From positions 1 to 60,216 of the forward strand of contig JAWAEB010000001.1 in NCBI GenBank assembly GCA_038891515.1: DNA of 60,216 nucleotides, written 5' to 3'. The notes beneath the pieces were generated by a model. The model was not told where the DNA came from and made no database searches. It was given only the letters and a program-made list of their open reading frames with translations. This document shows positions 8,538 to 30,101 of the stretch, one piece after another. Within the stretch, counting starts at the first letter, position 1. Each line of letters opens with the position of its first letter. The translations under genes and the position numbers were made by a program. Source of the DNA: Nitrososphaerota archaeon (GTDB taxonomy: Archaea > Thermoproteota > Nitrososphaeria_A > Caldarchaeales > Caldarchaeaceae).

Positions 8538-9254
8538 TTGAGTTTCCCGCCACATATGTTGGTACTGTCAAGGATCCTAGACAAACAGTTAGTCGAGCAT
8601 GGAGCTTCCAAGCTTATACCAGAACCCATAGAATTGAACAGACAAAAAACTATGCTGGTAATTGTTGACATGCAGAACGATTTCGTGAAGCCGGGAGGAG
8701 CCATATACCTAGGGACTGATGCGGAGGCAACTGTACCACCGATAAAGAAGCTACTTGAGAAAGCCCGTAAAAATGGGATGAGAATCCTATTCACTAAATC
8801 TTGGTATGAGTCCGATGATCCTAGGTTTTCAGACCATCCTAAGGCTGGCGCGAAGTACAAAGGCTGTATGGCTGGAACAGAAGGAGCTGAGATAATCAAG
8901 GAGCTCGCTCCACAACAGGGAGAACTAATCATAACCAAACCCTCATATGACTGCTGGTTCGGCACCAAGCTAGAAGAGACGCTAAAAGGATTGAAGTTCG
9001 GGACCTTCTCACATTGGTCCGTACACAGGAACAGACTCATGAACGATTGTGGCGTCATCATCACGGGAGTCGCAACAAACATATGTGTTGAAAAAGCCGT
9101 TACCGGCTTTTATCTGAGAGGCTACGAGATCACCATACCTATTGACTGCGTAGCTGCTACAGATCAGTTCACCCAGCTCTTGGCCCTCTACCAGTTCAAG
9201 GAGTTTTATGGAGCAAATCTAACCTTATCAGATCTAATCGGGTTTGTATCTTAA
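8538..9254 (+). CDS. isochorismatase-family cysteine hydrolase (nicotinamidase / N-carbamoylsarcosine amidase / RutB group)
   Basis: MLVIVDMQNDFVKPGGAIYL and ITGVATNICVEKAV (catalytic Cys). Track start is TTG 8538; ATG 8556 is an alternative. Confidence 0.8.
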   Translation: MSFPPHMLVLSRILDKQLVEHGASKLIPEPIELNRQKTMLVIVDMQNDFVKPGGAIYLGTDAEATVPPIKKLLEKARKNGMRILFTKSWYESDDPRFSDHPKAGAKYKGCMAGTEGAEIIKELAPQQGELIITKPSYDCWFGTKLEETLKGLKFGTFSHWSVHRNRLMNDCGVIITGVATNICVEKAVTGFYLRGYEITIPIDCVAATDQFTQLLALYQFKEFYGANLTLSDLIGFVS

Positions 9255-9285
9255 AACTTAAATCCATATTAGATGAGAAACAGGT

Positions 9286-10614
9286 ATGCCTGAGGCTACA
9301 AGCATCAGGGACTTCCTAGCAACATTAGAGGAAAACAATCTTCTTATCAGGGTTCGGAGGCCTGTAAACCCTCGATTTGAGCTTGCAGCAGTTCTTAAGA
9401 AAATAGTTGCAAATGGCCGTGCTGCACTATTCGAGAAGGTGGAGGGCTACTCTAACACCGTTGTAGGTGGAATCTCAGCCACGCGGAAGATGCTGGCGCT
9501 AGCTATGGGTGTAAAGGAGGAAGACCTCCTTAGGGAGTATGCTGCTCGGTCCTCCTCAAGGATTAAGCCTAATGTATTACGTAACTCACCACTTTATGAA
9601 AACTATAAGGAGAACGGGGACATCTCCCAATTACCAATCATAACACATTTTGAGCGAGATGCAGGCCCATATATTGTGGCAGGTATAGTAGCGGCGAAGG
9701 ACCCTGAGACAGGGTTCACAAACCTATCCTTCAACAGGATGCAAGTCAAAACTGGTAGACGCCTCGGAATAAGGATGATGCCACCCCAGCATCTGGGCAT
9801 TATCCACTCAAAACAAGAGGCTAAGAAACGTAACCTCGAGGTAGCCATCTCAATAGGCAATCACCCCATAGTTATGATGGCCGCTTCAGCCACGTTGCCA
9901 TATGGAGACGACCACCTAGAGTTGGCGGGAGGACTACTTAGAAGACCCCTAGAAGTCGTAAGGTGCAGGATTAGTGACATATTTGTTCCAGCGTATTCGG
10001 AAATAGTGCTCGAGGGTGTTGTCCTAGCCGGGGTTCGGGAATTAGAAGGCCCATTCGGCGAGTTTATGCAATACTATACACCTGTCACAGAGAATCATGT
10101 CTTTGAAGTGAAAAGTGTGATGTACAGGACAGATTACATATATCAGACGCTTATATGCGGGTCGTCAGAGGACCTTGGACTTCTAGCCCTCTCCCGCGAG
10201 GCATTAATATATAGAACACTAAAAGATATGGGATATGATGTTGTGGATGTAAGCCTAATGCCCTTCATCTTTAATGGAGCCATATCGATCAGGAAACGAT
10301 TCGAAGGTGAGCCAAAAAACGTAGCGATGGCAGCTTTCGGAGCATATCAGTGGCTAAAACACTGCGTGGTGGTCGATGAAGACGTCGATGTACGTAATCT
10401 CAACGATGTCTGGTGGGCAATGGCTACAAGAAGCAAACCTGATACTGGTGTATTCGTAGTAAGCAACGCACTTGGCTTCGGAAGAGGTGACAAGAAAGGA
10501 CTGCACAAGTCAAAAGTGTGTATAGACGCCACCGTTCCGATGGATGTTAAAGATGAGTTCGAACGAAAGAAAATACCCGGAGAAGAATCAATAAATATAG
10601 AAAGATATACATAG
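9286..10614 (+). CDS. UbiD-family (prFMN-dependent) decarboxylase, paralogue 1
   Basis: 442 aa. ERDAGPYIVAGI, NLSFNRMQV and EGPFGEFMQYY are UbiD-family signatures. Confidence 0.85.
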   Translation: MPEATSIRDFLATLEENNLLIRVRRPVNPRFELAAVLKKIVANGRAALFEKVEGYSNTVVGGISATRKMLALAMGVKEEDLLREYAARSSSRIKPNVLRNSPLYENYKENGDISQLPIITHFERDAGPYIVAGIVAAKDPETGFTNLSFNRMQVKTGRRLGIRMMPPQHLGIIHSKQEAKKRNLEVAISIGNHPIVMMAASATLPYGDDHLELAGGLLRRPLEVVRCRISDIFVPAYSEIVLEGVVLAGVRELEGPFGEFMQYYTPVTENHVFEVKSVMYRTDYIYQTLICGSSEDLGLLALSREALIYRTLKDMGYDVVDVSLMPFIFNGAISIRKRFEGEPKNVAMAAFGAYQWLKHCVVVDEDVDVRNLNDVWWAMATRSKPDTGVFVVSNALGFGRGDKKGLHKSKVCIDATVPMDVKDEFERKKIPGEESINIERYT

Positions 10615-10753
10615 TCACATCGATCTTTTTTTGAACACATCACATGAAGTATGAATCAACACTCTAGGGTGATTGGTGTCTTGTAGTTTCTGGCGTTTTC
10701 TTTTCTTCATAAGTGGGTCCAGATGCTCTGAGCTATCATGTTCTATTGTTCTT

Positions 10754-11152
10754 CTCTTCCCAGACTTGAAATCGAAAGCTTTTAAAAAGGCTGGTCTGCT
10801 CAGTGGTGGTGAAAGACAAATGCTTGCTATTGCCAGAGCTTTAATATTGGATCCAGACCTGCTTCTGCTTGATGAGCCTACAGCTAACCTTTCGCCTATA
10901 GCTACCATGAACCTAATAGACAGCATAAGACCGATAAATGTGGACGGTGTCAGCGTGCTGCTGGTGGAACAGAACGTTAAGAAGGCTCTTTCAGTAGCTT
11001 CACGAGTATACATATTAGTTTCAGGCCGCATACTCCATCATGCACCGGCAGAACAAGTAGTGATGGGCGACATCAGCAAACTTTTCTCCCTGATTTCAGT
11101 AAATGATGATGTTATCTATCGTCAGTCAGCTCCGATGACACAAGCTATTTAG
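10754..11152 (+). pseudogene. 5'-truncated remnant of a LivF-type ABC ATPase
   Basis: [48 protein letters not shown]...VLLVEQN covers only the signature, Walker B and H-loop half. No Walker A is found in any frame upstream, and no partner transporter genes are adjacent. Confidence 0.7.
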
Positions 11153-11230: not shown

Positions 11231-11828
11231 GTGGGATCTGACCACCGGGCAGCAGTGATAGTGATTGACATGCAGAGAGTTTTTCTTGAGCCTATGTCAC
11301 CTCTCGAAATAGCACCAACCTGAACAAAGGAAGTCGTTAACTCAATTCGCTCCTTACTAGAAATTGCTAGCACAGTGAAACTGCCTGTTTTTTATACGAT
11401 GATGGTTTTCAATCGAGACCTGTCAGACGCTGGTAGATGGATGGATAAGTATCCGGAGTTGAAAAATGACAGATGGTTCACTCCTTGTAGAGATAATAAC
11501 TGCGTTAAAGCCGCTCCCCGATGAAAGGATCATTAAAAAACCTAAGCCGAGCGATTTCTTCGGAACGGATCTACATGTATTTCTGAGAACATATAACATT
11601 GACACCTTGATAATTACGGGTTGTGTCACAAGTGGATGCGTGAGAGCTACAATAGTGGATGGTTTCTCGTATGACTACAGGTGTATAGTACCCAAAGAGT
11701 GTGTGGTGGACAGGAATGACGAACGCCACCTATCCAATCTCAGAGATATTGCTATGAAGTATGCTGATGTAACAGGATTGGATGTCGTCCTTGACTATAT
11801 TCGCACCAAATATACTGGTAGCCTATAA
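11231..11828 (+). pseudogene. isochorismatase-family hydrolase, disrupted (in-frame TGA plus frameshift)
   Basis: Frame 2 reads GSDHRAAVIVIDMQRVFLEPMSPLEIAPT, then TGA (11321-11323), then KEVVNSIRSLLEIASTVKLPVFYTMMVF...YPELKN. Homology then continues in another frame from about 11466 (DGSLLVEIITALKPLPDERIIKKPKPSDFFGTDL...LIITGCVTSGCVRATIVDG). Confidence 0.75.
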
Positions 11829-12139: not shown

Positions 12140-12706
12140 TTGAGAATCGTTGTAGGGATAACCGGTGCCAGCGGCGTGGTATTAGGGGTCAGATTCCTTG
12201 AAGTAGCGAGAAAGGTAGCTATCGAGACACACACCATAGTTAGTCCCTCAGCTTACGAGACTATGGTGTTAGAGACTGACATGAAGCCTGAGTATGTTAG
12301 GGCTTTAGCATCCAGACTATATGGATACCGAGATATGGCCGCGTCAATATCGAGTGGATCATTCATGACAGACGGGATGGTGGTGATACCCTGCAGCATG
12401 AAGACCCTAGCCGGCATAGCTCATGGGTATGACGACAACCTTATCATAAGGGCTGCTATGGTGACACTCAAAGAGAGACGTAGGCTCGTTCTGGTTCCTA
12501 GAGAAACACCCCTAAACATAATGCACATACGGAACATGCTCATTGTTGCAAAGGCGGGTGCAGTGGTATTGCCTGCAATGCCTGCATTCTATCCAAGGCC
12601 TGCCACTGTGGCCGACATCGTTGATTTTCTCGTTGGCAAGGTGTTCGATATGTTCGGAGTTAGTCATGACCTCTACAAGAGATGGGAGGGCGTCAACCCT
12701 GAATAA
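12140..12706 (+). CDS. ubiX: flavin prenyltransferase UbiX (prFMN synthase)
   Basis: MRIVVGITGASGVVLG...VIPCSMKTLAGIAHGYDDNLIIRAA...LVPRETPL. TTG start is preceded by gggagggggtga (SD-like). Confidence 0.9.
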   Translation: MRIVVGITGASGVVLGVRFLEVARKVAIETHTIVSPSAYETMVLETDMKPEYVRALASRLYGYRDMAASISSGSFMTDGMVVIPCSMKTLAGIAHGYDDNLIIRAAMVTLKERRRLVLVPRETPLNIMHIRNMLIVAKAGAVVLPAMPAFYPRPATVADIVDFLVGKVFDMFGVSHDLYKRWEGVNPE

Positions 12707-12943: not shown

Positions 12944-14425
12944 CTATGTATACGTTCTGAGTGAATGGATTCCTTTTCTTCCTTTTTCATGTAATATTAT
13001 TGACTTTGAGACAAGATATTCATCCAGACCCTCCAGCCCCAGTTCACGTCCGATGCCACTATTCTTTACACCTCCGAACGGCATCTCAATTCTTGGTACG
13101 TGCAGGTTATTTATCCAGACAGTACCCACCTCAAGCTTTCTAGCCGCCTTCATTGCTTTCTCTATGTCCCTAGTCCATATGGAGGCGTCTAGTCCATAGA
13201 TGCTGTCATTAGCCTTTGATATAGCCTCTTCCAAGTTCGTCACAATGAAGACTGGCAGGACGGGGCCAAAGCACTCCTCACGACAGACTCGGCTGTATTC
13301 ATCAACATTATCCAATACTGTGGGGAGGTAGAAATGTCCAAGGGAGAGCAGTGGGTCTTCAGGTCTCTTTCCACCGGCTAGCACTCTTGCACCCCGCTGC
13401 TGGGCTTCAGAGACCATCTCCTCGATGTTATTCCTCTGTCTGGCGGAATGCAGCGGCCCCATCCCAGTACTGGGATCCAATCCATTGCCGACCCTAAGTG
13501 AATTGACACACTCAACCAGTTTATTTAGGAATGATTGGGCCATGTCCTTCATGATGTAAAGTCGTTTGACACTATTGCATGTCTGCCCTGCATTTCTGTA
13601 CCGTCCTAAAAGACAAGCGTTAACAGCCATTTCAAGATCCGCATCCTCACATACAATCATGGGATCACTACCGCCCAGTTCAAGGGTAACCCTCTTCAAA
13701 CCCTTTGCCGCAACCTCCATGACATGCTTTCCTGTCTCAGTATCCCCTGTAAAGGCAATTTTTGTGATTTTTTTATTCCTAATCAACGCCTCACCAACAG
13801 TGGCTCCAGGTCCCACCACAATATTCATAACACCCCGAGGTAATCCCGCCCTTACAAATAAACCGCCTATCTCTAGTACGGTTAGTGGTGTAGTGCTAGC
13901 TGGCTTTAAGACTATAGTGTTACCTACAGCTAGGGCCGGAGCCACCTTCACCATTGACAGAACTACTGGTGCGTTCCATGGAGATATGGCAGCACAGACC
14001 CCCACTGGGAGTTTCCATACGAGCCCATGTTCTCCCTCATCTAGCCTGACGTATCTATTACTTAACTGTCGGGCTAAGATACCATAGTATTCTAGGCAAT
14101 GGGCGGTCATATGCAGCTCGGCCCTAGATTCTGAGATAGTTTTCCCTTGCTCCATCGTGAGTAGTCTAGCAAGCCTATCCATAGAGGTTTGAATCCACTG
14201 GGATACCTTAATGAGAATTTTCGAGCGTTCACCTGGGTCCACCTCACACCAGCTCTGGAACGCCTCATGCGCCGAGTCTACAGCTGCTTCCACGTCCTCA
14301 GGCGTACCTCTGCTTACCTGAGCGACAGTCTCGCCCGTAGCAGGGTTTGTTACAGCGTAGTGCGATTTATCTGATGAGTCAACCATTTCGTTATTGATAA
14401 GTAACCTGTGGTGTGGAGCGCTCAA
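12944..14425 (-). CDS. NAD(P)+-dependent aldehyde dehydrogenase
   Basis: 493 aa. FTGDTETGKHV, LELGGSDP and NAGQTCNSVKR (catalytic Cys) are ALDH-family motifs. Confidence 0.9.
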   Translation of the reverse strand: MSAPHHRLLINNEMVDSSDKSHYAVTNPATGETVAQVSRGTPEDVEAAVDSAHEAFQSWCEVDPGERSKILIKVSQWIQTSMDRLARLLTMEQGKTISESRAELHMTAHCLEYYGILARQLSNRYVRLDEGEHGLVWKLPVGVCAAISPWNAPVVLSMVKVAPALAVGNTIVLKPASTTPLTVLEIGGLFVRAGLPRGVMNIVVGPGATVGEALIRNKKITKIAFTGDTETGKHVMEVAAKGLKRVTLELGGSDPMIVCEDADLEMAVNACLLGRYRNAGQTCNSVKRLYIMKDMAQSFLNKLVECVNSLRVGNGLDPSTGMGPLHSARQRNNIEEMVSEAQQRGARVLAGGKRPEDPLLSLGHFYLPTVLDNVDEYSRVCREECFGPVLPVFIVTNLEEAISKANDSIYGLDASIWTRDIEKAMKAARKLEVGTVWINNLHVPRIEMPFGGVKNSGIGRELGLEGLDEYLVSKSIILHEKGRKGIHSLRTYT

Positions 14426-14440: not shown

Positions 14441-15499
14441 TTAACCACTATCCTTCAATATGTGAGGCATTATCTCATGAGCTATTAGCTTAAGAGCTGT
14501 GAGTGGCTCAGGACCTATTACATCAAAAGCTATTGGTAGCTTTATACCACTCCTAATAAGTGAGTGAAGCTTTTCGACACAGTCTTCCGGAGTCCCAGAA
14601 ACCGAGAGCTGTTCCACCAAACTATCACTGACGGCTTTGGCTGCTCCGGGAAGTCCAGATACCTTCATGGCATTCTTTATCGCCTGCACCTCGCGCTCAT
14701 CTAGGTCCACGTACCTACTGATTGTCTCTACAGCGGTCAACGTCGGGTCCGCGATGTATAGGGCAACGGCCTCCCGCACGGCCCGTCTGGCCGTCTCGCG
14801 TTTTCTGTCCACTGAGAAATTCAGGTTGGCTGCGAGACAGAAGTCTTCCCACAGCCTTCGCCTTTTCTCCAAACCTTTCACCACGTATGAGACACAGTCC
14901 TTGACATAACGCTCTGAGGCCGAGAGAAAGCGGCTTAGAATAACACCATCAGCGTCCTCTCCCGCAAGCTCTAGTATTCGCGGACTTCTACTACCGACAT
15001 AGATGGGGATCCTGTTCCTAACCGGCCTGAATCCGTGGAAATCGAGTCTACTGGGTATGGAGAGTTGATATACTTTTCCACGGTATGTTCCTCCCTCTCC
15101 GATGAGAGTCCTGATTATTTGGATAGAGTCTTTAATTGCCCAATAAGGTTTCGCCTCGGCAGCTGCAGACTGGTCCTTCACCAGTCCATGCTTGACTAGT
15201 GCGGAGACATTGACACCTATCCCCAAGGTGAAGCGGCCCTTAGATATCTCGTCTAATGTTGCTGCCTCCATGGCCAAAATGCTTGGATGTCTAGTATACA
15301 CGCCTATTACAGATGTCCCCAGTCCGATCTTTTTAGTTCTTGAAGCTATGACGCTCATGAGGCTTGTAGCGCTCCTGCCGTAATACCCTTCTCCAAGCCA
15401 GAAACTTGATATACCTAGTAACTCAGCTTGCTCGGCCATCGCCACGGTCTCTTCATAAGATGAAAAGGGAGCTATCCCGAACCCGTCGCAGAACTCCAT
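14441..15499 (-). CDS. LLM-class (luciferase-like) flavin/F420-dependent oxidoreductase
   Basis: MEFCDGFGIAPF...AEQAELLGISSFWLGE...RFTLGIGV is the LLM pattern. The track ORF extends to 15601, but family-typical length favours ATG 15499. The stop lies 15 nt upstream of the ALDH start, so the two are probably co-transcribed. Confidence 0.7.
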   Translation of the reverse strand: MEFCDGFGIAPFSSYEETVAMAEQAELLGISSFWLGEGYYGRSATSLMSVIASRTKKIGLGTSVIGVYTRHPSILAMEAATLDEISKGRFTLGIGVNVSALVKHGLVKDQSAAAEAKPYWAIKDSIQIIRTLIGEGGTYRGKVYQLSIPSRLDFHGFRPVRNRIPIYVGSRSPRILELAGEDADGVILSRFLSASERYVKDCVSYVVKGLEKRRRLWEDFCLAANLNFSVDRKRETARRAVREAVALYIADPTLTAVETISRYVDLDEREVQAIKNAMKVSGLPGAAKAVSDSLVEQLSVSGTPEDCVEKLHSLIRSGIKLPIAFDVIGPEPLTALKLIAHEIMPHILKDSG

Positions 15500-15603
15500 A
15501 TCCTCCTCGTAACTGTACTGGTATTTCACTCTTAAGGCAGGGGTTGGTCCCACAGTTCTTAACAGTCCACACAATGCTGGAGAGGAGTCATTCACCAACA
15601 AAA

Positions 15604-17698: not shown

Positions 17699-17700
17699 TT

Positions 17701-20589: not shown

Positions 20590-21978
20590 ATGACAAATGA
20601 CCTTCGGTCTTTTCTTACCAAGCTTAGCGGGCTGGGTGATGATGAGTTTGTTGAGGTACACCGTGAAGTGGATCCTAAGTATGAACTTTCGGCTGTCTTG
20701 AGGAAACTTCAGGAAAAAGGACGCTATCCTGCGGTGCTATTTAGCAAAGTCAGAGATACAAGGATGAAGACTGTGAGTAACATTTTCGCCAGCAGAAAAC
20801 GTCTGGCTTTAGCGTTCAATTCATCAGAAGATCGGTTGTTGGAGACGTATATGGTTAAGGAGGAGAACCGTATAAAGCCTAAGAAAGTGACCACAGGCCC
20901 GGTTAAGGAGAGAGTTCTGACGGGTAATGATGTAAACCTAGATATTCTACCCAAAATTGTACACTGCGAGAAGGACGCAGGACCATATGTAACCGCAGGC
21001 GTCATGGTCACACGCGACCCTCAGTCAGGCGCTTATGATGTCGGTATATTCAGAATGCAGTTCAAGGGCAGGAATAGGTTCGGCGTTCTCTTCGGTGACT
21101 ACTCAAAGCCAGCTAGGTTGATAAGGATGAATGAGGCCAATAACAAGCCCACTGAGTGCGCTGTCTTCATAGGGCATCATCCCGCCTGTATACTTGCGAG
21201 CCAGACTAAAGTACCCTATGGGATAGACGAATATGAGGTCATGTCCGGTCTACTCGATGAGCCAGTGGAGATAACTCAATGCGAGACAGTGGATTTGGAG
21301 GTTCCTAGTAGGGCGGAACTCGTACTTGAGGGCGTCATCCTTCCAATGGTGAGAGAGCCGGAAGCACCCTTCGGTGAGTACACCTGGTATTATGGGTTGG
21401 AGAGGGAGAGTCATGTGATGGAAGTGACTGCTATAACCCATAGGGAGGACGCGATCTTCCATGACATATTTAGTGCTCACCCCGACCACAATATGACAGC
21501 TCTTGTCCAACGTGAGGCGGTGCTGTATAGAAGAGTTAAGATGCTTGTACCCAGCCTACGCTCTGTACGTCTTCCAATCTCTGGTGTCTGTAGACATGTT
21601 GCATATGTCTCCATCAGAAAGGAGTTCGATGGTCAGGGAAAGCTTGCTGCGTTAGCTGCACTGGCCGCGGACCCGCTCTCAAAGCTAGTTGTGGTAGTTG
21701 ATGATGACATAGACATATCGAACGAGTCTGAAGTAATATGGGCAGTGGCCACTAGAGCACAGGCTGATAGGGCCATCTTCATGGTGCCGGAAGCGTATGT
21801 AAGTGAACTCGATCCATCCAGCTATTCTATACATGGACGCAATACAAAGGACTCTCTTAACACAAAGTGGGCTATTGATGCTACCAAACCCGTAGGACTA
21901 CCATTCGAAGAGAGGGCTGATGTACCAGCGGAGATATGGCGGCAGATAGACTTGTCGGAATATTTGGAGGTGGGTTGA
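20590..21978 (+). CDS. UbiD-family (prFMN-dependent) decarboxylase, paralogue 2
   Basis: 462 aa. EKDAGPYVTAGV, GIFRMQF and EAPFGEYTWYYG. Confidence 0.85.
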   Translation: MTNDLRSFLTKLSGLGDDEFVEVHREVDPKYELSAVLRKLQEKGRYPAVLFSKVRDTRMKTVSNIFASRKRLALAFNSSEDRLLETYMVKEENRIKPKKVTTGPVKERVLTGNDVNLDILPKIVHCEKDAGPYVTAGVMVTRDPQSGAYDVGIFRMQFKGRNRFGVLFGDYSKPARLIRMNEANNKPTECAVFIGHHPACILASQTKVPYGIDEYEVMSGLLDEPVEITQCETVDLEVPSRAELVLEGVILPMVREPEAPFGEYTWYYGLERESHVMEVTAITHREDAIFHDIFSAHPDHNMTALVQREAVLYRRVKMLVPSLRSVRLPISGVCRHVAYVSIRKEFDGQGKLAALAALAADPLSKLVVVVDDDIDISNESEVIWAVATRAQADRAIFMVPEAYVSELDPSSYSIHGRNTKDSLNTKWAIDATKPVGLPFEERADVPAEIWRQIDLSEYLEVG

Positions 21979-21991: not shown

Positions 21992-22303
21992 TTGCACGAA
22001 TTCATACTGGCATGGCTGAACATTAACACCATAGAGATAGCCCTGATAAGGGAGAACGACATGGTCAACTCATGGGACCTGAGGTCTGCCATGACAGAAC
22101 TTGACAGAATCGCAAACATTGTCGCCACAACCAAATGGCCTCCCGAGGTTGCAGGCCAAGTTATGACAGTAGTCCGGTCGCTTGAGGAAGCTACTCACAC
22201 CGTGAGGAACAAGGACTCAACTAGGGTGAAGGCAGCCCACAGGAGGCTACTGGCTTCTGTTCACACTTTGAGGGATGCTATACGGAGATACCTCAGTCCC
22301 TAG
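21992..22303 (+). CDS. hypothetical helical protein
   Basis: 103-aa ORF (TTG start; an internal ATG at MVNSWDL is possible). No family recognised. Its stop abuts the stop of the convergent ThDP enzyme with 0 nt between. Confidence 0.35.
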   Translation: MHEFILAWLNINTIEIALIRENDMVNSWDLRSAMTELDRIANIVATTKWPPEVAGQVMTVVRSLEEATHTVRNKDSTRVKAAHRRLLASVHTLRDAIRRYLSP

Positions 22304-23992
22304 CTACTGCAGTATAAAATGTTTGAAATCCAGCTTGAAACCCCTATCTAGGGGGTCTGTTCTAACATCGATCAATACAGGTTTATCCAATCCAAGAGCC
22401 GACTTCAAGGTATGAGCAATCTCATCCTCTTTCTCAACGGTCAATGTAAAGGCCCCCATGCTCTCACCGAGCTTAGAGTAGTCGATTGGTGGGTCCAGCT
22501 CTGTCCCCACATACCTAGAGGCGTCCCCACCAAGCGCATCAAAGCTCATTTTCACTGATACGTATGAGCGATTGTTACATAATATGATTATGACTGGTAG
22601 GTTATATCTAGACGCCGTCCAAAGACTCTGGGGTGCAAACATAAACGCTCCATCACCTGTGAAGCAAACCACATGGCGGTCGTCTGCTGCCATTTTAACC
22701 CCAAGCGAGGCAGGAACACCCCAACCAAGAGATCCCGCGCTCCTACCTACGAGGGTCTTCGGCTTGCTGAAAGTGTAAAACGAGTCTAGGTACGTGGAAG
22801 AGACTACACCCTCATCAACTATAACAGTATCTTTTGGAAGGATGTTGTTCATCTCTTCTACTAGTTTCCAAGTTCTTACGAGTCCTACCCCCTCCCTCTT
22901 TCTGCAGGCGTCCTTTGAAGCTTCGATGAACTCCCTATAACTTCTCACAACAGATAACCTAGCGGACTTGCTCGAGAACTCTCGGCGTCCCGTGCTTCTA
23001 ACTTCGTTTAGAAGCATCTCCAAAGCTGATTTCGGGTCGGCGACAATGCCCACATCTACCGGGTGCACACGGGCGATCTCCCACGGCGAAGTATGGATAT
23101 GTACAAGTCTAGAATGTCTGGGTAAATAGGGTTTGTTACTGAAGGCACGTTCACTGAATACACGGCATCCCACTGCCAGAACAGCATCTGCCGCCTTAAT
23201 GAATGGGTGGTTGGGGTCGAACACGCCCACGTACAGCTCATGATCATTGGGAAAGTTGATGGATTGGGTGAAAGGGTATGGGGACTCGGATACAACAGGC
23301 AGGGCCAGCTCCTCACAGAGTGTCATTAGTAGATGTAAGGCGTCAAATTCAGCTACCTGCCTACCGGCTATAACAACTGGTCGTTGGGCGTTCATCAGTA
23401 GGTGGAAGCATGTAGTTATAAGATCCTTATTCGGTGTAACTTGCTTGTTGATTCTGTACCTAGATGGTTCCACGGGCTCGTATCTCGCATCGGATTCTGA
23501 GACGTCCTCAGGTACTATTATGCAGGTGGGGCCTGGGTCATGAGGAGAGGTTGCGACCTTTATTGCCCTTCTGATTGCTCTAGGAACATCGTTAGGATTG
23601 CTCACCTTCCAACAAAACTTCGTATAATGGGCTGCAACACCCCGCATATCTTCCAACCAGAGACCAGGCTCATTCAATTCATGCCGGCTATCCGTGTCAC
23701 CGAGGTAAATCACAAGAGGTGAACCATCGATATAGGCATTATAGAGGTTGGGAAGGGCTGTGGAAAGCCCGGGAGCGGCGTGCAGAGCAATGAACGTTGG
23801 CTTCCCCGTGTACCGGGAATAGCCATCCGCCATCCCCACAGACACATTTTCATTTAGTCCCGCCACAAGATCTATGCCACGATATGAGCAGGAACGCAGC
23901 AAACCTACGATTGTAGAACCGGCAAGACCGAAGAGCCAGTAGGCACCCTCCCGCACCATAATATCCGTAACCGTATCCGCAGCTTTCACCAC
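22304..23992 (-). CDS. thiamine-diphosphate-dependent enzyme (acetolactate synthase / sulfoacetaldehyde acetyltransferase / benzoylformate decarboxylase superfamily)
   Basis: 562 aa. The N-terminal Pyr domain is GLNENVSVGMADGYSRYTGKP. The ThDP-binding motif is GDGAFMF...NNRSY. Confidence 0.85.
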   Translation of the reverse strand: MVKAADTVTDIMVREGAYWLFGLAGSTIVGLLRSCSYRGIDLVAGLNENVSVGMADGYSRYTGKPTFIALHAAPGLSTALPNLYNAYIDGSPLVIYLGDTDSRHELNEPGLWLEDMRGVAAHYTKFCWKVSNPNDVPRAIRRAIKVATSPHDPGPTCIIVPEDVSESDARYEPVEPSRYRINKQVTPNKDLITTCFHLLMNAQRPVVIAGRQVAEFDALHLLMTLCEELALPVVSESPYPFTQSINFPNDHELYVGVFDPNHPFIKAADAVLAVGCRVFSERAFSNKPYLPRHSRLVHIHTSPWEIARVHPVDVGIVADPKSALEMLLNEVRSTGRREFSSKSARLSVVRSYREFIEASKDACRKREGVGLVRTWKLVEEMNNILPKDTVIVDEGVVSSTYLDSFYTFSKPKTLVGRSAGSLGWGVPASLGVKMAADDRHVVCFTGDGAFMFAPQSLWTASRYNLPVIIILCNNRSYVSVKMSFDALGGDASRYVGTELDPPIDYSKLGESMGAFTLTVEKEDEIAHTLKSALGLDKPVLIDVRTDPLDRGFKLDFKHFILQ

Positions 23993-24780
23993 TGCCTCCT
24001 CATCGCTTCTTCCAATTTTGAGAGGGCCAGTCTTTCAAATTCAAACAGTCGTGGGTCGTCATAACTTCTAGGTCTCGGAAGCTGGACTTCTAATATGGAA
24101 TATATCGAGCCCGGTCTGGGAGTGAAGATTGCGACTCTGTCACCCATATATACTGCCTCAGAGATGCTGTGAGTGACGAAGACGACTGTTTTCCTGTCTT
24201 TCGCCCATATGCTTAGTAGCTCTGACTGCATGCGTCTTCTTGTTATCTCATCCAATGCTCCAAAAGGCTCATCCATCAACAGGATATCCGGGTCTGTGAC
24301 TAGCGCACGGGCTATACCCACTCGTGTCTGCATCCCACCTGATAGCTGCTGCGGATAAGCATTTTCAAAGCCCTTCAAGCCCACCAGGCCTATGACGCCG
24401 CTTATTCTATCGTTCCACTCACCACGGCTTACACTGTTGTTGGATTCCAAGGCGAATTGTATGTTCTTCCAGACAGTTCTCCAAGGTAGCAACAAAGGTG
24501 TCTGGAAGACGGTGGATATCCTTGTTGGGCGGCTCTTGAGCTGGGCTATGCGAACGGTCCCCAAGTCATGCTGTTCAAGTCCTGCTATTATATTGAGGAG
24601 CGTTGATTTACCGCATCCCGAAGGGCCGAGTAGACAGATAAACTCTCGATCGTATATTGAGAGGGTGAGGTTTGAAATAGCACCTATGATTGTGCCATTG
24701 GGTAGTGTGAAGGATTTGGATACACCGTTAATGGTTATTATCTCCTCCACAACCTCTAGATTCCCGCCTGCTTCCGCCAC
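23986..24780 (-). CDS. ABC transporter ATP-binding protein, NitT/TauT (SsuB/TauB-like) family
   Basis: GPSGCGKSTLLN, LSGGMQTRVGIARAL and LLMDEPFGALD. Overlaps the downstream ThDP gene by 7 nt. Confidence 0.85.
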   Translation of the reverse strand: MAEAGGNLEVVEEIITINGVSKSFTLPNGTIIGAISNLTLSIYDREFICLLGPSGCGKSTLLNIIAGLEQHDLGTVRIAQLKSRPTRISTVFQTPLLLPWRTVWKNIQFALESNNSVSRGEWNDRISGVIGLVGLKGFENAYPQQLSGGMQTRVGIARALVTDPDILLMDEPFGALDEITRRRMQSELLSIWAKDRKTVVFVTHSISEAVYMGDRVAIFTPRPGSIYSILEVQLPRPRSYDDPRLFEFERLALSKLEEAMRRQW

Positions 24781-25514
24781 TTGAAGGCCACCCCTTCCAC
24801 ATTCTTAAGTATTACATTATCTATGACGAGAATCAATAGTGTTATGGCAAGTGTCCATGCGAAGACCTGCTCCATGTCCAGCCGCCTATAGTACAAGTCA
24901 AGCATCCTACCAACACCAGATGGAAGCCCCACAAGCTCGGTAATAACAGTTAGTTTCCACGCCAGACTTATGGCGTATCTGGCACTTCCAAACATGTATG
25001 GATAAATCCAGGGGATAACAACGCTTCTTAATATCTTGGAGGTGCTGCTCCCCACGGACCTTGCCATCAAGAGCAGTCCCTTGTCAAGACTTCTCACACC
25101 TTCCCTTATGGCTATCACCACTGAGGGAAAAATAATCACAGCAGTAACGGCTATACCAGCGTATTCATTAGGGCCTATAGATAGAATGGCTATGATTATC
25201 CAAGCCAAGCTAGGGATCGTCATGATGATATAGATACTGTATTCAAGCAGTATGTCGCCCAACCTCCTAAGACCCATGAAGGAACCCACGAGAACGCCGG
25301 CGCCAAACCCGATGAGAAACCCGAGCCAAGTTCGCCTGACGGTGTCAGCCAAGTTTGTCCAGAGTATGCCGGCTGTAGCGTTAGAAACCAATGTTTCCAC
25401 TGTCCGGACAGGGCCAGGCGCCCACCCGGGTGGTAGGAGGACTGAGAGCATCTCCCAACCTAGTATTAAAGCAACTGGTCCGGCCGTAGTCCTGATGGCC
25501 CTTTTGATGTTCAT
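24756..25514 (-). CDS. ABC transporter permease (SsuC/TauC-like)
   Basis: 252 aa, 6 TM. EAA-type loop ARSVGSSTSKILRSVVIPWIYP. Confidence 0.8.
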   Translation of the reverse strand: MNIKRAIRTTAGPVALILGWEMLSVLLPPGWAPGPVRTVETLVSNATAGILWTNLADTVRRTWLGFLIGFGAGVLVGSFMGLRRLGDILLEYSIYIIMTIPSLAWIIIAILSIGPNEYAGIAVTAVIIFPSVVIAIREGVRSLDKGLLLMARSVGSSTSKILRSVVIPWIYPYMFGSARYAISLAWKLTVITELVGLPSGVGRMLDLYYRRLDMEQVFAWTLAITLLILVIDNVILKNVEGVAFKWRKQAGI

Positions 25515-26284
25515 GTGGTTATTTCAGCCCTCCAGTTCAGAAGATGCCTCTCCAGCATTCGAAGAAACAGGGTATCAGATACCAGTATTACGATAGCGAA
25601 GGATAGAGTCCACGCGAATACTTGGTCCATACGTAAGACCCCGTAGTTGAAGCCAAGCTGGTAACCGATGCCGCTCTGCATACCTAGCAATTCAGCTATG
25701 ATGGTAAGCTTCCATGCGAGACCAAGACCGTACCGGGATGCAGCTAGCAGGTAGGGGTAGATTGTCGGTATCACCACAGATCGGGTTATACCCCAGCTCG
25801 TGTGCCCAAAGCTCCTCGCCATCCTAACCGTATCGGAGTCCACAGTTCTGACACCTTCTCTTATTCCTATGGCGAATACAGGGGAGCATATCGCCACCAC
25901 GAAGAAGATGACTGATAACTCGCTTAGTCCAAACCATATAAGGGCCATCACAGCCCAGGCCACGCTGGGAAATGAGACAAGTATTATTACAATCGGGTCC
26001 AGTAAGTCGTTGAAGAATTTTCGTATGCCCATTAGCAGGCCGAGACACGTGCCAATCATGAGTGAGAGTAGGAGGCCCGTGAGGACTCTTCGGATGGTGT
26101 CGAGGAGATGGGTGAACAGGACTCCAGTTACTACATTACGGGCTAGGGTGTCGATAACTGGTATGGGACCGGGGATTAGACGCTCAGGAAACAATAAAGC
26201 AAGTAACTGCCATACGGTAACTGGTATGGCTACTGATGCGAGCCTCAGAAATATTGGGCTGGTCAGGCTACGGCCTGACTTCAC
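25511..26284 (-). CDS. ABC transporter permease (SsuC/TauC-like), second copy
   Basis: 257 aa. ARSFGHTSWGITRSVVIPTIYP. Overlaps the next permease by 4 nt. Confidence 0.8.
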   Translation of the reverse strand: MKSGRSLTSPIFLRLASVAIPVTVWQLLALLFPERLIPGPIPVIDTLARNVVTGVLFTHLLDTIRRVLTGLLLSLMIGTCLGLLMGIRKFFNDLLDPIVIILVSFPSVAWAVMALIWFGLSELSVIFFVVAICSPVFAIGIREGVRTVDSDTVRMARSFGHTSWGITRSVVIPTIYPYLLAASRYGLGLAWKLTIIAELLGMQSGIGYQLGFNYGVLRMDQVFAWTLSFAIVILVSDTLFLRMLERHLLNWRAEITT

Positions 26285-27257
26285 GTATCAATACCCTTGG
26301 GTCGTCCACTGCGTTTTGGCTGATGGCTCCGGCGTCACGAATTATGCGGATATTCAGTGCAACATTATCAAGGTTCCAAGCATCAGACCGCAGGTATAAT
26401 GGAACTATTCGCTCCTTATAGACGGCAATGGCTTCAGGACTGTCCGGCAACCTTGTCAATGAGGCGTATCTCTTCATTGCCTCGTCTGGATTGTTATGAA
26501 TCCAATCTACTGCCTCATTCCATATCTTTACAATTTTTCTAACAGCTTCTGGATACCTATCAAGAAACGCAGATTGAACCCCTATCCCCGTGAATACAAG
26601 GTCGTAGCCAGTCTTCTGCCTCCAGACTTGGTTCACATCTGCAAGCTCACGCGCTTGCCCTGTCACAAGTAGCAACGATGTAAATGGGTCAAATATAGAA
26701 ATGAAGTCTGCATCACCCTTAGCCATGATCTCAGGCAGCACAGGTGGCGGACCAGTGAGAACCTTACTAGCAGACTTCTCCAGGTTCGGGAGACCAGCGT
26801 ATTCGAGTACTGGTGAGACATCGTCAGGCTGGTCTAGTATTGCGTAAACTTTACCTCTAAGATCCTGTAGGCTCGTAAAAGGTGAGTCCGGTTTCACGAG
26901 TACCGACTGAAGGCCACGTAGTGAAGCACCTACCAACACGATATTACGTCCAGCGCCTCTGAATTCTGCTGCAGTATGCACGCTGAGAGGAAGTTCTATA
27001 TCGAGTTGCCCAACTCCGAACGCAGTATTCATATCGTCCGGATTCGGAAACTCAACCCATTCTATGTTCAGTCCCTCACGTTCAGCCAGCTTGTTTTCCT
27101 TTATGTAGGCCACGGGTAAACCAGAGATAAACGGCTCGTAACCCACTCGGACTTTGTCAGGCAGAGGTGGTGGAAGAGTCAAGAAGTATACGGTCACAGC
27201 CAAGGCGATTATAACCACAGCCCCAATAACGGCTGCGATCAGTCCCCTTCTTCGCAT
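26268..27257 (-). CDS. ABC substrate-binding protein, NMT1/THI5-SsuA-like, membrane-anchored
   Basis: 329 aa with an N-terminal TM anchor (LIAAVIGAVVIIALAVTVYFL). Overall resembles sulfonate/nitrate/taurine/HMP-type binding proteins. Confidence 0.7.
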   Translation of the reverse strand: MRRRGLIAAVIGAVVIIALAVTVYFLTLPPPLPDKVRVGYEPFISGLPVAYIKENKLAEREGLNIEWVEFPNPDDMNTAFGVGQLDIELPLSVHTAAEFRGAGRNIVLVGASLRGLQSVLVKPDSPFTSLQDLRGKVYAILDQPDDVSPVLEYAGLPNLEKSASKVLTGPPPVLPEIMAKGDADFISIFDPFTSLLLVTGQARELADVNQVWRQKTGYDLVFTGIGVQSAFLDRYPEAVRKIVKIWNEAVDWIHNNPDEAMKRYASLTRLPDSPEAIAVYKERIVPLYLRSDAWNLDNVALNIRIIRDAGAISQNAVDDPRVLIREVRP

Positions 27258-27259
27258 GT

Positions 27260-29704
27260 CTACTTGCTTCTTGATGAGGTATTTAAATCTTTGAAGCTTT
27301 CCGAGAAGTGAATAGCTCTCTTAACCCTGTAAGGGGTCAGCGGCATCTCATCAATCTCGACACCCAATGGACGCAGTGCATCCTCAACGGCATTGAGAAG
27401 GGCCACAGGAGGAGGTATGGCTCCACCCTCTCCACCACCCTTGAACCCACCTACGGTATAAGGTGACGGTGAAGACAGATGCTCTATTGTGAGCGGGGGC
27501 GACTCTACAGCGGATGGGAGTAGGTAGTCCATCAATGTTGTGTTTAGTGGATATCCGTTTTCGTCATAGCTCAGTTCTTCAAATAGTCCGCCCCCAATCC
27601 CCTGGACAACTCCACCTGCTATCTGCCCATCCAACAGAAGAGGATTTATGATGTTCCCAGTATCGCTTACAAACACTTGACCGAGGATCTTCACCGCACC
27701 AGTTTCAATATCCACCGCTACTGTCACTCCGTAAGCACCGGAGCTATAGGTAGGATAGATATTCGTCCTCCCCTTTTCATCCGGGAGATATCTTAGATTG
27801 GGTAGGACATATATGGAGCTTTCTTCAAGTGAGGGTGCCATATCACTTGGCATCCGGTAGGGCTGGGTATAAGCTATTTTTGCCAAATCTTTCATAGTGA
27901 TAGATCTTGATGGTGTATCCTTGACCCATATCCTACCATCCTCAACCAATAGGTCAGCTTGGTTAGCCTCAAGTAGGTATGCAGCTATCCTCGTCAACCG
28001 GTCCCTGAGTTTCCTACATGCTGTGGCAACAGCTCCCACGCCAGCGACTGAGGACCGGCTGGCCCAAGCTCCCAAACCATATGGGCATTCCTCAGTGTCA
28101 CCCTCAACAACGTGCACCATTTCAATCGGTAGCCCTAGCTCGTCCGCCGCTATCTGTGCCAAGGCTGTCTTATGTCCTTGGCCTTGGTCGGCAACTCCAA
28201 CATAGACCGTTATTTCACCAGAGGGCCACATTCTCACCTTCGCGCTCTCATACCCAGTATGCAATGAATTGGGAACAGCGTTAGCCACAGGCTCAAGCAT
28301 AAAGACGATACTTACCCCACAATACACACCGTTCCTCCAAAGACTTTTCTGACGCGACCTGAACCCATCATAATCGATAAGCGTCTTCACCCTCGCCATA
28401 CATTCAGCGTATTGACCACTATCGTACATTGCTCCCGTAGTTGAAACATAGGGAAACTCATCTGGTTTTATAAGGTTCTTGACTCTCAAATCAACAGGGT
28501 CTACCCCGAGTTCCCTTGCAGCCTTATCCATCGCGTGTTCTATTACATAGTTCGAGTCGGCCTTCCCAAAACCGCGGACGGCGCCATAAGGCGCCTTGTT
28601 AGTTCTCACACACACCATCTCGACCAAGTAGTTGCTGACTCTGTAGCCACTTGGGATGAACCTAGCAGTAGCCATAACAGAAGCTAAGCCTGGTTGGGGA
28701 ACGTATGCCCCTAGGTCGGCCAAAAATCTATCCTTTATAGCCAGCAGTGTACCATCCCGCCTGAAGCCGAGTTCTACGTAGTGAACTTGCTCCCGTGAAT
28801 GGCATGTGGCCATTAGATGCTCACTTCTAGTCTCAATCCATTTCACAGGTCTCCCCAACATCTTTGAGGTTAGAGGGATGAGGGGTTCTTCTTGGTATAA
28901 GGGTATCTTGACCCCGAACCCCCCACCCACATGTCTGGCTACCACACGTATTTTATGCTCAGGAATGTTGAGAGACTGGGCGATCACCGATTTGAATATG
29001 TGAGGAGTTTGGACGCTTGCGTAGATTGTCATGCTGCCGTCTCCGGGGTTGTAAGCTGCCACATACCCCCTAGGCTCTATCGGTGAACCCGTATACCTAT
29101 GCCTCCTCACTCTATCCTTGACAACTACATCCGACTGCTCAAATGCGGACGCAACATCACCAGACTCAAACCTTGTCGAAAGCACAATGTTGTCAGGCCA
29201 GCCCTCATGTATTATGGGCGCATCATCTCTAATGGCTTTTTCCATATCTACTACCGGTGGTAATTCTTCGTAGTTAACTGCTATTAGTTCAAGGGCATCC
29301 TGTGCAACATACCGGTCTTCTGCTATGACAATAGCCACGGGCTCCCCGACATAGAACACTTTATTCACAGCAAGACAGTAACATTCTGCACGTCTCATCT
29401 GTGGATGTGAGACTGTCAGTGGGAGAGGGGGGAGAATCTTAACAATATCGCTCCCAGTCAATACGAGAGCAACCCCTTGGGATCTTCGTGCCTCGGAAAC
29501 ATCTATGCTTCTAATTCTTGCATGGGGATACGGGCTTCTTAGAAAGGCGGCGTACAGCATTCTAGGTAGGAAAACATCGTCAACATATGTTCCTAACCCT
29601 CTGACCAGCGTGGGATCTTCAGCTCTTCTCACAGCTTGCCCTATAAAGTCACCCAAAAAGACTACACACCTCAGAATCCAATGAATACACCTTCTTAAAT
29701 CCAT
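27260..29704 (-). CDS. xanthine dehydrogenase/CoxL-family molybdopterin-binding large subunit (orphan)
   Basis: AVRRAEDPTLVRGLGTYVDD N-terminus, RHVGGGFGVK and GGFKGGGEGGAIPP are family motifs. There is no form-I CO dehydrogenase CSFR loop. The start is uncertain: the track ORF runs to 29845, while homology starts near 29650 (ATG 29704/29710 or TTG 29656). No FAD or 2Fe-2S subunit genes are adjacent. Confidence 0.85.
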   Translation of the reverse strand: MDLRRCIHWILRCVVFLGDFIGQAVRRAEDPTLVRGLGTYVDDVFLPRMLYAAFLRSPYPHARIRSIDVSEARRSQGVALVLTGSDIVKILPPLPLTVSHPQMRRAECYCLAVNKVFYVGEPVAIVIAEDRYVAQDALELIAVNYEELPPVVDMEKAIRDDAPIIHEGWPDNIVLSTRFESGDVASAFEQSDVVVKDRVRRHRYTGSPIEPRGYVAAYNPGDGSMTIYASVQTPHIFKSVIAQSLNIPEHKIRVVARHVGGGFGVKIPLYQEEPLIPLTSKMLGRPVKWIETRSEHLMATCHSREQVHYVELGFRRDGTLLAIKDRFLADLGAYVPQPGLASVMATARFIPSGYRVSNYLVEMVCVRTNKAPYGAVRGFGKADSNYVIEHAMDKAARELGVDPVDLRVKNLIKPDEFPYVSTTGAMYDSGQYAECMARVKTLIDYDGFRSRQKSLWRNGVYCGVSIVFMLEPVANAVPNSLHTGYESAKVRMWPSGEITVYVGVADQGQGHKTALAQIAADELGLPIEMVHVVEGDTEECPYGLGAWASRSSVAGVGAVATACRKLRDRLTRIAAYLLEANQADLLVEDGRIWVKDTPSRSITMKDLAKIAYTQPYRMPSDMAPSLEESSIYVLPNLRYLPDEKGRTNIYPTYSSGAYGVTVAVDIETGAVKILGQVFVSDTGNIINPLLLDGQIAGGVVQGIGGGLFEELSYDENGYPLNTTLMDYLLPSAVESPPLTIEHLSSPSPYTVGGFKGGGEGGAIPPPVALLNAVEDALRPLGVEIDEMPLTPYRVKRAIHFSESFKDLNTSSRSK

Positions 29705-30101
29705 TACCATAGCAGAATTGATGATGTCCTGATAGACAGCACCAGTATGTTTCATAAATGCCATGGTCTTAGGAGAGATTAGAACAAAAAGTTTCCCGTT
29801 CTCAATCTCTTTGTTGTGTCTGGTTCCAAGGTGATAGCCCTTCAAAAAGAGATCAAGAGTTCATCTAGCTCGAATAACACGACTCCCGCGAAAAAGGCAA
29901 GATAATCACCCAACGGTTTTTAAGAATCACACTATAGGGATTAAAAGTGGTTTTGTTCCAAGAGCATCCATTGTGGACAAAGTCTTAACCGCTCATAACT
30001 GGCTTTGCTCATCAGAAAAGAGGCATAACCTAGTGCCCGCAAAGGTATTTGGGGGTATGGCCCCCGGGGGAAGCTGTTCGAGATCTATGATGAACTAGCA
30101 G

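Follow-up and report, generated by a model that had tools for sequence, protein, structure and literature searches.

A horizontally acquired gene island in a hot-spring Caldarchaeales archaeon with a nine-gene core that is conserved in a distantly related archaeon

Results

Gene content and organization of the island

The window analyzed here, a stretch of 60,216 nucleotides at the start of contig JAWAEB010000001.1, comes from the metagenome-assembled genome (MAG) of a hot-spring archaeon of the order Caldarchaeales, and its positions 8538-29845 hold an island of about 21 kb that is of foreign composition and was acquired horizontally. The open reading frames (ORFs) of the island were assigned by Pfam and NCBIfam scans (Table 1), which recovered every gene that an initial annotation, made from the sequence alone, had listed in this interval. 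The island encodes an isochorismatase-fold amidase, two UbiD paralogues (UbiD1 and UbiD2) of the family dependent on prenylated flavin mononucleotide (prFMN), the flavin prenyltransferase UbiX, an aldehyde dehydrogenase (ALDH), a luciferase-like oxidoreductase (LLM), HyuA and HyuB, an aminotransferase (AT), a small ORF, a thiamine diphosphate (ThDP) enzyme, an ATP-binding cassette (ABC) importer and the large subunit of a molybdenum (Mo) hydroxylase (CoxL). Nine of these genes (LLM, ALDH, HyuA, HyuB, AT, UbiD2, small ORF, ThDP and CoxL) form a core that is co-conserved in a distantly related archaeon, and the core probably represents one pathway for the breakdown of a ring-shaped carboxylic acid.

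The genes are organized in four transcription units on alternating strands (+, -, +, -) with one divergent and two convergent junctions, rather than on two convergent strands as originally described. The first unit (+, 8538-12706) carries the amidase, UbiD1, two gene remnants and UbiX, while the second (-, 15601-12944) carries the LLM followed by the ALDH. The third (+, 15638-22303) contains HyuA, HyuB, the AT, UbiD2 and the small ORF, which overlap or are closely spaced. In the fourth (-, 29845-22304), CoxL, the binding protein, two permeases, the ATPase and the ThDP enzyme all overlap or abut. From the probable LLM start at 15499, the divergent spacer to HyuA is 138 nt long and contains a TATA-like box. 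Matches to named NCBIfam equivalogs (caprolactamase, benzoylformate decarboxylase (BFD), RutB, BiuH and others) were in every case under the curated cut-off; therefore, only family-level enzyme names hold.

Table 1. Features of the island, with the amino acid identity of each core protein to its homologue in locus L133 of a Nitrososphaerales archaeon
Feature	Position	Strand	Basis and remarks	Identity to L133 homologue
NCS1 (CytX-like) permease and V4R protein	left of island		outside the acquired block	
Isochorismatase-fold cysteine amidase	8538..9254	+	PF00857, 124 bits; start probably Met at 8556	
UbiD1, prFMN-dependent (de)carboxylase, distinct clade	9286..10614	+	all three UbiD Pfam domains	
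LivF-type ABC ATPase remnant, C-terminal half only	10673..11152	+	PF00005 profile positions 101-137 only	
Decayed second isochorismatase gene	11256..11828	+	ORF 11466-11828 matches PF00857 in its C-terminal part	
UbiX flavin prenyltransferase (prFMN synthase)	12140..12706	+	NF004685 251 bits, TIGR00421 246 bits, both above cut-off	
NAD(P)-dependent ALDH	12944..14425	-	PF00171, 558 bits; under every NCBIfam equivalog cut-off	53%
F420-type LLM	14441..15601	-	PF00296, 182 bits; start probably Met at 15499	53%
HyuA, ATP-dependent hydantoinase/oxoprolinase/lactamase A subunit	15638..17698	+	three Hydantoinase_A-type Pfam domains	47%
HyuB subunit	17695..19350	+	PF02538, 450 bits; overlaps HyuA end	58%
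Class I (AspAT-like) AT	19350..20525	+	PF00155, 213 bits; overlaps HyuB end	42%
UbiD2, HmfF-like prFMN-dependent decarboxylase	20590..21978	+	HmfF 6h6v, 307 bits	60%
Small ORF, four-helix-bundle protein (model)	21992..22303	+	directly downstream of UbiD2; no Pfam match	homologue present
ThDP-dependent enzyme, BFD-like	22304..23992	-	three TPP Pfam domains	37%
NitT/TauT ABC importer	23986..27257	-	Pfam and NCBIfam; genes overlap each other, CoxL and ThDP	
Importer ATPase	23986..24780	-		
Importer permease	24756..25514	-		
Importer permease	25511..26284	-		
Importer NMT1/SsuA-type binding protein	26268..27257	-		
Mo-hydroxylase large subunit (CoxL-type), orphan	27260..29845	-	MoCoBD_1, MoCoBD_2 and hammerhead domains; start probably near 29710	55%

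Conservation of the core cluster in a second archaeon

A metagenome scan with UbiD2 as the query returned 22 contigs. One of them, which contains locus L133, is 123 kb long and is assigned by NCBI to the MAG of a Nitrososphaerales archaeon. In the 21 kb of this contig that were examined, homologues of all nine core genes are found within about 16 kb, in an order and operon arrangement that differ from those of the island. When the eight L133 enzymes were searched back against the whole Caldarchaeales MAG, all best matches fell inside the island and by wide margins over the next match: 644 versus 234 bits for HyuB, 842 versus 588 bits for CoxL among 17 paralogues, 348 versus 129 bits for the ThDP enzyme and 371 versus 172 bits for the LLM. 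The L133 HyuA shares 47% identity with the island HyuA versus 33-36% with its next-best matches in this genome, and the best matches of the island HyuA within its own order reach 35-40%. The initial annotation had named a lack of co-conservation in any other genome as one of the results that would refute its proposal of a dedicated route; instead, eight reciprocal-best homologues and the small ORF cluster in L133.

The two clusters are rearranged relative to each other. The ALDH gene follows the LLM in the island and follows UbiD2 and the small ORF in L133, and UbiD2 comes after the AT in the island and lies on the strand opposite HyuA-HyuB-AT in L133. Both loci retain HyuA-HyuB-AT as a unit in which the genes overlap or abut. 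The neighborhood has thus been kept despite rearrangement, a classic sign of functional coupling. Partial sets were identified on shorter metagenome contigs, namely L132 (UbiD2, small ORF, ALDH and AT), L130 (ThDP and UbiD2), L129 (LLM, UbiD2 and a UbiD1 of 54% identity) and L135-137 (CoxL, CoxL, UbiD1-like and UbiD2). Among the database homologues, a HyuA-like and a UbiD1-like gene appear to share one contig of 38,850 bp, and a UbiD2 orthologue is present in a 1.75-Mb genome.

These results bear on the explanation that the island is no functional unit, its genes being paralogues from large families, unrelated to one another, that chance or the assembly of a variable region has placed side by side, or its UbiD and UbiX being housekeeping components of mevalonate decarboxylation. 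The families concerned are heavily expanded in this lineage (17 CoxL, six HyuA and three UbiD in the MAG), gene debris lies within the island, no second UbiX was found in the MAG, and the single UbiD of a sister family, which lies beside an aconitase-X-type dehydratase (one locus examined), shares 38-40% identity with UbiD1. This explanation is nevertheless very improbable, and we consider it largely excluded: the eight reciprocal-best homologues are clustered on one foreign contig, the island flanks are collinear with a same-genus genome on both sides, UbiD is lacking in 8 of 17 same-family genomes, two of them 95% complete, and the aconitase-X-type partner was not found in this MAG or in four other family members, one of them a one-contig genome. 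The archaeal mevalonate (anhydromevalonate phosphate) decarboxylase was rejected as an identity for the island UbiD on the same distribution and missing partner, a check that draws on distribution and neighboring genes, with no reference sequence or model of that decarboxylase compared.

In the sister family itself, exactly one UbiD is present in every genome with a match, and in L112 (G069:C14, 299-2796, -) it lies directly upstream of the aconitase-X-like dehydratase; these two are candidates for the archaeal mevalonate decarboxylase/dehydratase pair. No homologue of the L112-type dehydratase was found in the window's own family (five genomes searched).

Borders and acquisition of the island

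GC content at third codon positions (GC3) is 0.40-0.56 in the island genes versus 0.59-0.70 in the flanking genes, and the shift is abrupt, falling between NCS1/V4R and the amidase on the left and between CoxL and an adenosine-kinase gene on the right. Only 1.2 kb separate the cytochrome b gene from the adenosine-kinase flank in G014, a genome of the same genus, versus about 25 kb in the present MAG. The flanks are collinear with G014 on both sides (81% DNA identity for cytochrome b and 72% from adenosine kinase to FtsZ), and a chimeric assembly is therefore unlikely. In searches with HyuA and UbiD2, the closest homologues of the island genes sit in Nitrososphaerales. A composition break, an empty syntenic site in a relative and nearest homologues in another lineage are thus all seen at this locus.

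Within the order, a search of 76 genomes, the present MAG included, yielded no orthologues of HyuA, UbiD1, UbiD2 or the amidase in the other 75, where the best matches were at paralogue level only (HyuA and UbiD1 at most 40%, UbiD2 at most 43% and the amidase at most 48% identity). Searches of three phylum samples of 400 genomes likewise yielded no orthologues. No tRNA, integrase or convincing flanking direct or inverted repeats were found at the island, and an Rfam scan detected no riboswitch, its sole match being a sub-threshold C/D-box small RNA (sRNA).

This sRNA gene candidate (8465-8521, +) shows the boxes C, D', C' and D, and its match to Rfam sR3 (25 bits) does not reach the gathering score. 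At the syntenic site of G014 (G014:C4, ~9130-9185), about 50 nt of it are kept, with different surroundings in the two genomes. The candidate marks the native side of the left junction; therefore, the foreign block begins between 8522 and 8537, in agreement with the left edge at 8538 in the initial annotation. The NCS1 permease and V4R protein had also been assigned to the left border, and they are present on that side, but they lie outside the acquired block; the NCS1 gene has native composition (GC3 0.59), and the conserved sRNA candidate lies between.

The segment from cytochrome b to the sRNA candidate (4717-8445), which contains a 130-aa ORF, a DUF429 gene, the NCS1/CytX-like permease and V4R, is of native composition and is not at the syntenic site in G014, where pieces of it match contigs C31 and C19. 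This is a rearrangement-prone spot beside the insertion. Neither V4R nor the 130-aa ORF is related to the two small ORFs found at the empty site of G014.

Composite history of the island

The earlier view of a composite island holds: the insertion of about 21 kb combines foreign composition, internal debris and parts of differing histories, as judged from sequence relationships. The amidase and UbiD1 each have a homologue of 79% identity in a 'Candidatus Caldarchaeum sp.' MAG, and because the longest contig is 36,220 bp for both homologues, these relatives are probably on one contig. In contrast, the best HyuA relatives anywhere are 50% identical and come from Nitrososphaerales; thus, the amidase-UbiD1 pair has its own history. 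UbiX, the single PF02441 match in the MAG, is just 60% identical to the UbiX of G014 and therefore also looks imported. The two gene remnants between UbiD1 and UbiX lie at the GC minimum, with the LivF-type remnant having the lowest GC of the whole window, and look like recombination scars. The decayed isochorismatase copy is 28% identical to the intact amidase and retains an N-terminal motif remnant at 11256-11292. The intact amidase has a complete Asp-Lys-Cys triad with the motifs VDMQNDF, ITKP and TNICV; its top PDB matches, RutB, cysteine hydrolases and biuret hydrolase, score just 53-65 bits.

In another Caldarchaeales genus, clusters with two or three adjacent UbiD paralogues (L123/L124 in G004:C11, L125 in G002:C176 and L126 in G009:C75) also hold an Amidohydro_1 enzyme, an EamA exporter, an NMT1-type binding protein and a NitT/TauT permease and ATPase, and the G004 cluster has a complete CoxLMS. 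The theme of UbiD, Mo-hydroxylase, amide hydrolase and NitT/TauT importer is one that recurs in the lineage with differing parts.

Two UbiD clades and a small partner protein

UbiD1 and UbiD2 share 36% identity, and both are nearest to HmfF (6h6v) among solved UbiD structures, with 313 and 307 bits respectively versus at most 181 bits for the others. The residue reported as decisive for furan specificity in HmfF is H297 (PMC7976604), which corresponds to His296 in our alignment to 6h6v. In the UbiD2 clade, HmfF His296 and the distal Arg331 are conserved throughout (19/19), and the other distal residue, Arg304, is conserved in 18/19 members, whereas all 62 members of the UbiD1 clade have Asp in place of His296 and Ile, Leu or Val in place of Arg331. 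The catalytic Arg is invariant in both clades, and the catalytic Glu is present in every UbiD2-clade member and in the island UbiD1. In the UbiD1 clade at large (P0236-P0299), 41 of the 62 members carry Asp instead of the catalytic Glu of the FGE(Y/F) motif. These signatures suggest that the UbiD2 substrate may be a dicarboxylate with a hydrogen-bond-accepting heteroatom, and that UbiD1 acts on a different substrate, possibly the monocarboxylate of an N-H heterocycle.

UbiD2 homologues were present on 14 of the 22 metagenome contigs at 50-65% identity and on 19 of the 22 at 46-65%. A hidden Markov model of the small-ORF family detected an ORF on 12 other contigs, in each case immediately downstream of the UbiD2 homologue. 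The AlphaFold2 model of the small ORF has four helices and a confidence score (pLDDT) of 96. It has no Pfam match, and a fold search and the Atlas returned generic four-helix bundles with no specific PDB relative. We conclude that the small ORF is probably an accessory subunit.

A further UbiD, the only one of its genome, lies beside an LLM, ECF/ABC ATPases and a CoxL in L127 of genome G011 (99% complete, 4 contigs), in which a search with the island UbiX as query gave no match. Either G011 has a very divergent UbiX or its UbiD obtains the cofactor from another source.

The Mo-hydroxylase and remaining core enzymes

The island CoxL matches CoxL 8uem with 536 bits and quinoline 2-oxidoreductase with 501 bits in the PDB. 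An identity as carbon monoxide dehydrogenase (form I CoxL) was rejected: in the alignment to 8uem the island loop reads AVRGFGKA versus AYACSFR in that enzyme (motif AYxCSFR, with the Cu-binding Cys), and the score is below the TIGR02416 cut-off. The MAG as a whole (G000, 1.55 Mb) contains 17 CoxL-type large subunits (for example on C2, C9, C17 and C34, and at 44948-47305 of the window) and five or six 2Fe-2S small subunits; thus, most of the large subunits must share, or lack, electron-transfer partners.

For the LLM, F420-dependent Mer-like models rank at the top of the NCBIfam matches with scores under cut-off, and the F420 biosynthesis genes CofE and CofD are present in the genome. HyuA is about equidistant from N-methylhydantoinase (393 bits) and caprolactamase-type (368 bits) structures. 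The AT is closest to aspartate and aromatic aminotransferases (205-215 bits), and the ThDP enzyme reaches 295 bits against the BFD model (cut-off 493 bits) and about 176 bits against the BbmA and BFD structures.

The matches of the ThDP enzyme and HyuA, together with the weak match of the amidase to structures related to N-carbamoylsarcosine amidase, would agree with a hydantoin-to-arene route, in which HyuAB opens a 5-(hetero)aryl hydantoin, the amidase acts as an N-carbamoyl-amino-acid amidase, the AT converts arylglycine to aroylformate, the ThDP enzyme and ALDH produce the aldehyde and then the (hetero)aromatic acid, and a UbiD decarboxylates this acid. Such a chain would deliver an aromatic or conjugated acid, as UbiD substrates require. 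We regard this route as improbable, because the amidase is not co-conserved with HyuAB (none lies in the 21 kb of L133), its history differs (79% identity to the Caldarchaeum relative versus at most 50% for HyuA), CoxL and the LLM are left without a role, and 5-aryl hydantoins and arylglycines are rare as natural substrates.

Discussion

Together, the results lead us to read the locus as an acquired composite island in which the core would act as one unit that degrades a heteroaromatic carboxylate by an aza-furoate-type route, accompanied by accessory modules. We hold this reading tentatively, at somewhat less than an even chance. As a nitrogen analogue of the furoate pathway, the overall scheme would share its logic with anaerobic nicotinate fermentation, with both the order of steps and the substrate inferred. 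UbiD2, charged with prFMN by UbiX, would take one carboxylate off a heteroaromatic dicarboxylate, and the Mo-hydroxylase would then hydroxylate the carbon beside the ring nitrogen to give a cyclic amide. The ring would be reduced by the F420-dependent LLM with F420H2, and HyuAB would open the resulting lactam at the expense of ATP to give an amino-dicarboxylate such as glutamate or 2-aminoadipate. A 5-oxoprolinase is able to open 6-oxo-pipecolate to aminoadipate (PMC11670438). The AT would convert the amino-dicarboxylate to the 2-oxo acid, the ThDP enzyme would decarboxylate this to a semialdehyde, and the ALDH would oxidize the semialdehyde to succinate or glutarate. Substrate uptake would fall to the NitT/TauT importer. 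The amidase and UbiD1 may constitute a second, separately inherited module that converts a carboxamide to the acid and then to the decarboxylated ring, with UbiX shared between the two. Among the schemes considered, we infer that this is the one giving every core enzyme a role.

A more specific form of the proposal is an archaeal aza-furoate pathway acting on an alpha,alpha'-dicarboxylate, in which UbiD2 with its new four-helix partner, the orphan Mo subunit, F420H2 and HyuAB would lead to glutarate or succinate; in this full form we consider it unlikely. The substrate candidates dipicolinate, from spores, and pyrrole-2,5-dicarboxylate are guesses. The bacterial dip route for dipicolinate was rejected as a counterpart, being monooxygenase-initiated and independent of the molybdenum cofactor, unlike the island.

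No cluster or pathway that combines the whole enzyme set of the island was found described in the literature, as the initial annotation had supposed, and the known systems each account for part of it. In the nicotinate route of Eubacterium barkeri, a hydroxylase, 6-hydroxynicotinate reductase and an enamidase carry out hydroxylation, reduction and then amide opening. The island would share Mo hydroxylation beside a ring nitrogen, ring reduction and hydrolytic opening of a cyclic amide with this fermentation, but a ferredoxin-dependent reductase and an amidohydrolase are used there versus an F420-type LLM and ATP-dependent HyuAB here, and only the island has a UbiD step. The caprolactam route (CapAB, omega-aminotransferase and ALDH) similarly combines ATP-dependent ring opening by a HyuAB-family enzyme with a subsequent aminotransferase and ALDH. 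However, the island proteins score 516 bits against CapA (NF050156) and 190 bits against CapB (NF050157) versus cut-offs of 1000 bits, and the AT is a class I AspAT-like enzyme (PF00155), not a class III omega-aminotransferase. The creatinine/N-methylhydantoin route pairs HyuAB with an isochorismatase-fold amidase, but neither the 21 kb of L133 nor the loci of at least 80 HyuA relatives among the matches listed contain an amidase, and Pfam scans revealed no creatinine deaminase or sarcosine oxidase in the island. Thus, the nicotinate, caprolactam and creatinine analogies drawn in the initial annotation each break down at defining features. The arginine transaminase pathway (AruH, AruI and KauB), with its triad of AT, ThDP decarboxylase and ALDH, and the bypass through 2-oxoglutarate decarboxylase and succinic semialdehyde dehydrogenase are precedents for a module of AT, ThDP-dependent 2-oxo-acid decarboxylase and ALDH, although the island enzymes are under the family cut-offs and the ThDP enzyme is nearest to BFDs.

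A clustered Mo-dehydrogenase, amide-bond enzyme and UbiD with its own UbiX also occur in lumazine/pterin cluster I of Cupriavidus sp. LA-1, where Mo-dehydrogenase, amidohydrolase and UbiD/UbiX act in lumazine degradation (PMC12391406). That cluster differs in its three-subunit dehydrogenase, Amidohydro_2 isomerase pair, pterin deaminase and xanthine-8-carboxylate decarboxylase, and it is without HyuAB, AT, ThDP, ALDH and LLM (PMC12391406). Its UbiD is distant from HmfF and inactive on furan carboxylates (PMC12391406), whereas both island UbiDs are HmfF-near. Since Pfam scans of the island detected the large Mo subunit alone and no gene of the amidohydrolase fold, the likeness is one of logic only, and the Caldarchaeales clusters of amidohydrolase, UbiD, CoxLMS and ABC genes described above resemble the lumazine cluster (PMC12391406) more than the island does.

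The hmf pathway of Cupriavidus basilensis, which comprises the decarboxylase HmfFG, the furoyl-CoA dehydrogenase HmfABC, the ligase HmfD, HmfE and HmfH, is similar in that UbiD/UbiX decarboxylation of a heteroaromatic dicarboxylate precedes Mo hydroxylation beside the heteroatom. UbiX is present in the island, UbiD2 has HmfF as its nearest solved relative and keeps the specificity His throughout its clade, and the ALDH and LLM could provide a front end that oxidizes aldehydes or alcohols. In contrast to the hmf system, UbiD1 has Asp at the position of the specificity His, the three-subunit HmfABC dehydrogenase has only a large-subunit counterpart, and Pfam scans of the island ORFs identified no HmfD-type AMP-binding ligase, HmfE/enoyl-CoA hydratase, FAD subunit or 2Fe-2S subunit. 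Furthermore, the island adds HyuAB, AT, ThDP and an F420-type LLM, which have no role in furan breakdown.

This likeness underlies a further explanation, in which two modules, independent of each other, are carried together and converge on 2-oxoglutarate. In the first, hmf-like module, the LLM and ALDH would oxidize hydroxymethylfurfural-type compounds to furan-2,5-dicarboxylate, UbiD2 and UbiX would convert this to furoate, and CoxL would serve as a furoyl(-CoA) dehydrogenase. In the second, HyuAB would convert a lactam or 5-oxoproline to glutamate, the AT would yield 2-oxoglutarate, and the ThDP enzyme and ALDH would yield succinate. The proximity of both UbiDs to HmfF (307-313 versus at most 181 bits), the retention of the furan-specificity His in UbiD2 and the JGI label of clade members as 2,5-furandicarboxylate decarboxylase all agree with the first module. 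So do the AMP-forming ligase and the ADP-forming acyl-CoA synthetase that lie directly upstream of the CoxL orthologue in L133, and the pairing of UbiD2 with an aldehyde:ferredoxin oxidoreductase in L131; the six HyuA paralogues of the genome are consistent with general lactam salvage. However, the island is without a CoA ligase, an HmfE-type hydratase, CoxM and CoxS, and its operons are shuffled relative to L133, with the ALDH beside the LLM here and beside UbiD2 there, while the neighborhood is retained. In the island, HyuA-HyuB-AT and UbiD2 also share a strand and a single unit whose genes overlap or lie close together, and coupling is therefore favored over mere co-travel. We thus regard two independent modules as rather unlikely, though a possibility to be taken seriously.

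Several observations weigh against the aza-furoate-type route itself. The co-conserved part is smaller than the 21 kb originally treated as one unit: in the 21 kb of L133, the amidase, UbiX, UbiD1 and the ABC importer are without homologues. Only one full-length second cluster was recovered, and L133 may descend from the same transferred block; therefore, the co-occurrence is not fully independent. The CoA ligases beside CoxL in L133, which the island is without, hint that a step may depend on CoA, as it does in the hmf pathway. No CoxM (FAD) or CoxS (FeS) gene adjoins CoxL in the island or in L133. In 80 genomes with HyuA relatives of 41-47% identity, no UbiD, UbiX or amidase was nearby among the matches listed, while HyuB was near the HyuA relative in 70 of at least 80 such loci. 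A furan suits the HmfF-like His no less than a pyridine or pyrrole ring does, and the ThDP enzyme is nearest, weakly, to BFDs, so that an aroylformate would seem to fit it better than 2-oxoglutarate or 2-oxoadipate. Finally, the enzyme scores are all under curated equivalog cut-offs; the steps of the route are read from sequence, and the substrate is a guess. A route for an N-heterocyclic or aromatic carboxylate or a lactam, as first proposed, stays plausible, and the active-site signatures of the two UbiDs sharpen this hypothesis.

The enzyme families of the island are all known and its logic has partial precedents; no description of the combination was found, and its conservation across two archaeal orders is not known from earlier work. 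The locus documents a clear-cut transfer of a gene cluster between archaeal orders, and its insertion site is exactly defined. It also defines two UbiD clades by differing invariant specificity residues and reveals a small partner protein that was previously unnoticed. The physiological substrates of UbiD/prFMN enzymes, HyuAB lactamases and the orphan CoxL paralogues of Caldarchaeales and Nitrososphaeria are mostly unassigned, and a conserved neighborhood that joins members of all three gives these families a testable context together. If the proposed route is true, it would be the first in which prFMN chemistry is coupled to lactam hydrolysis by HyuAB, and it would offer an alternative, dependent on molybdenum, to the bacterial dip route with its initial oxygenase step. 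It would also represent a new mineralization of N-heterocyclic carboxylates and a source of thermostable biocatalysts for reversible carboxylation.

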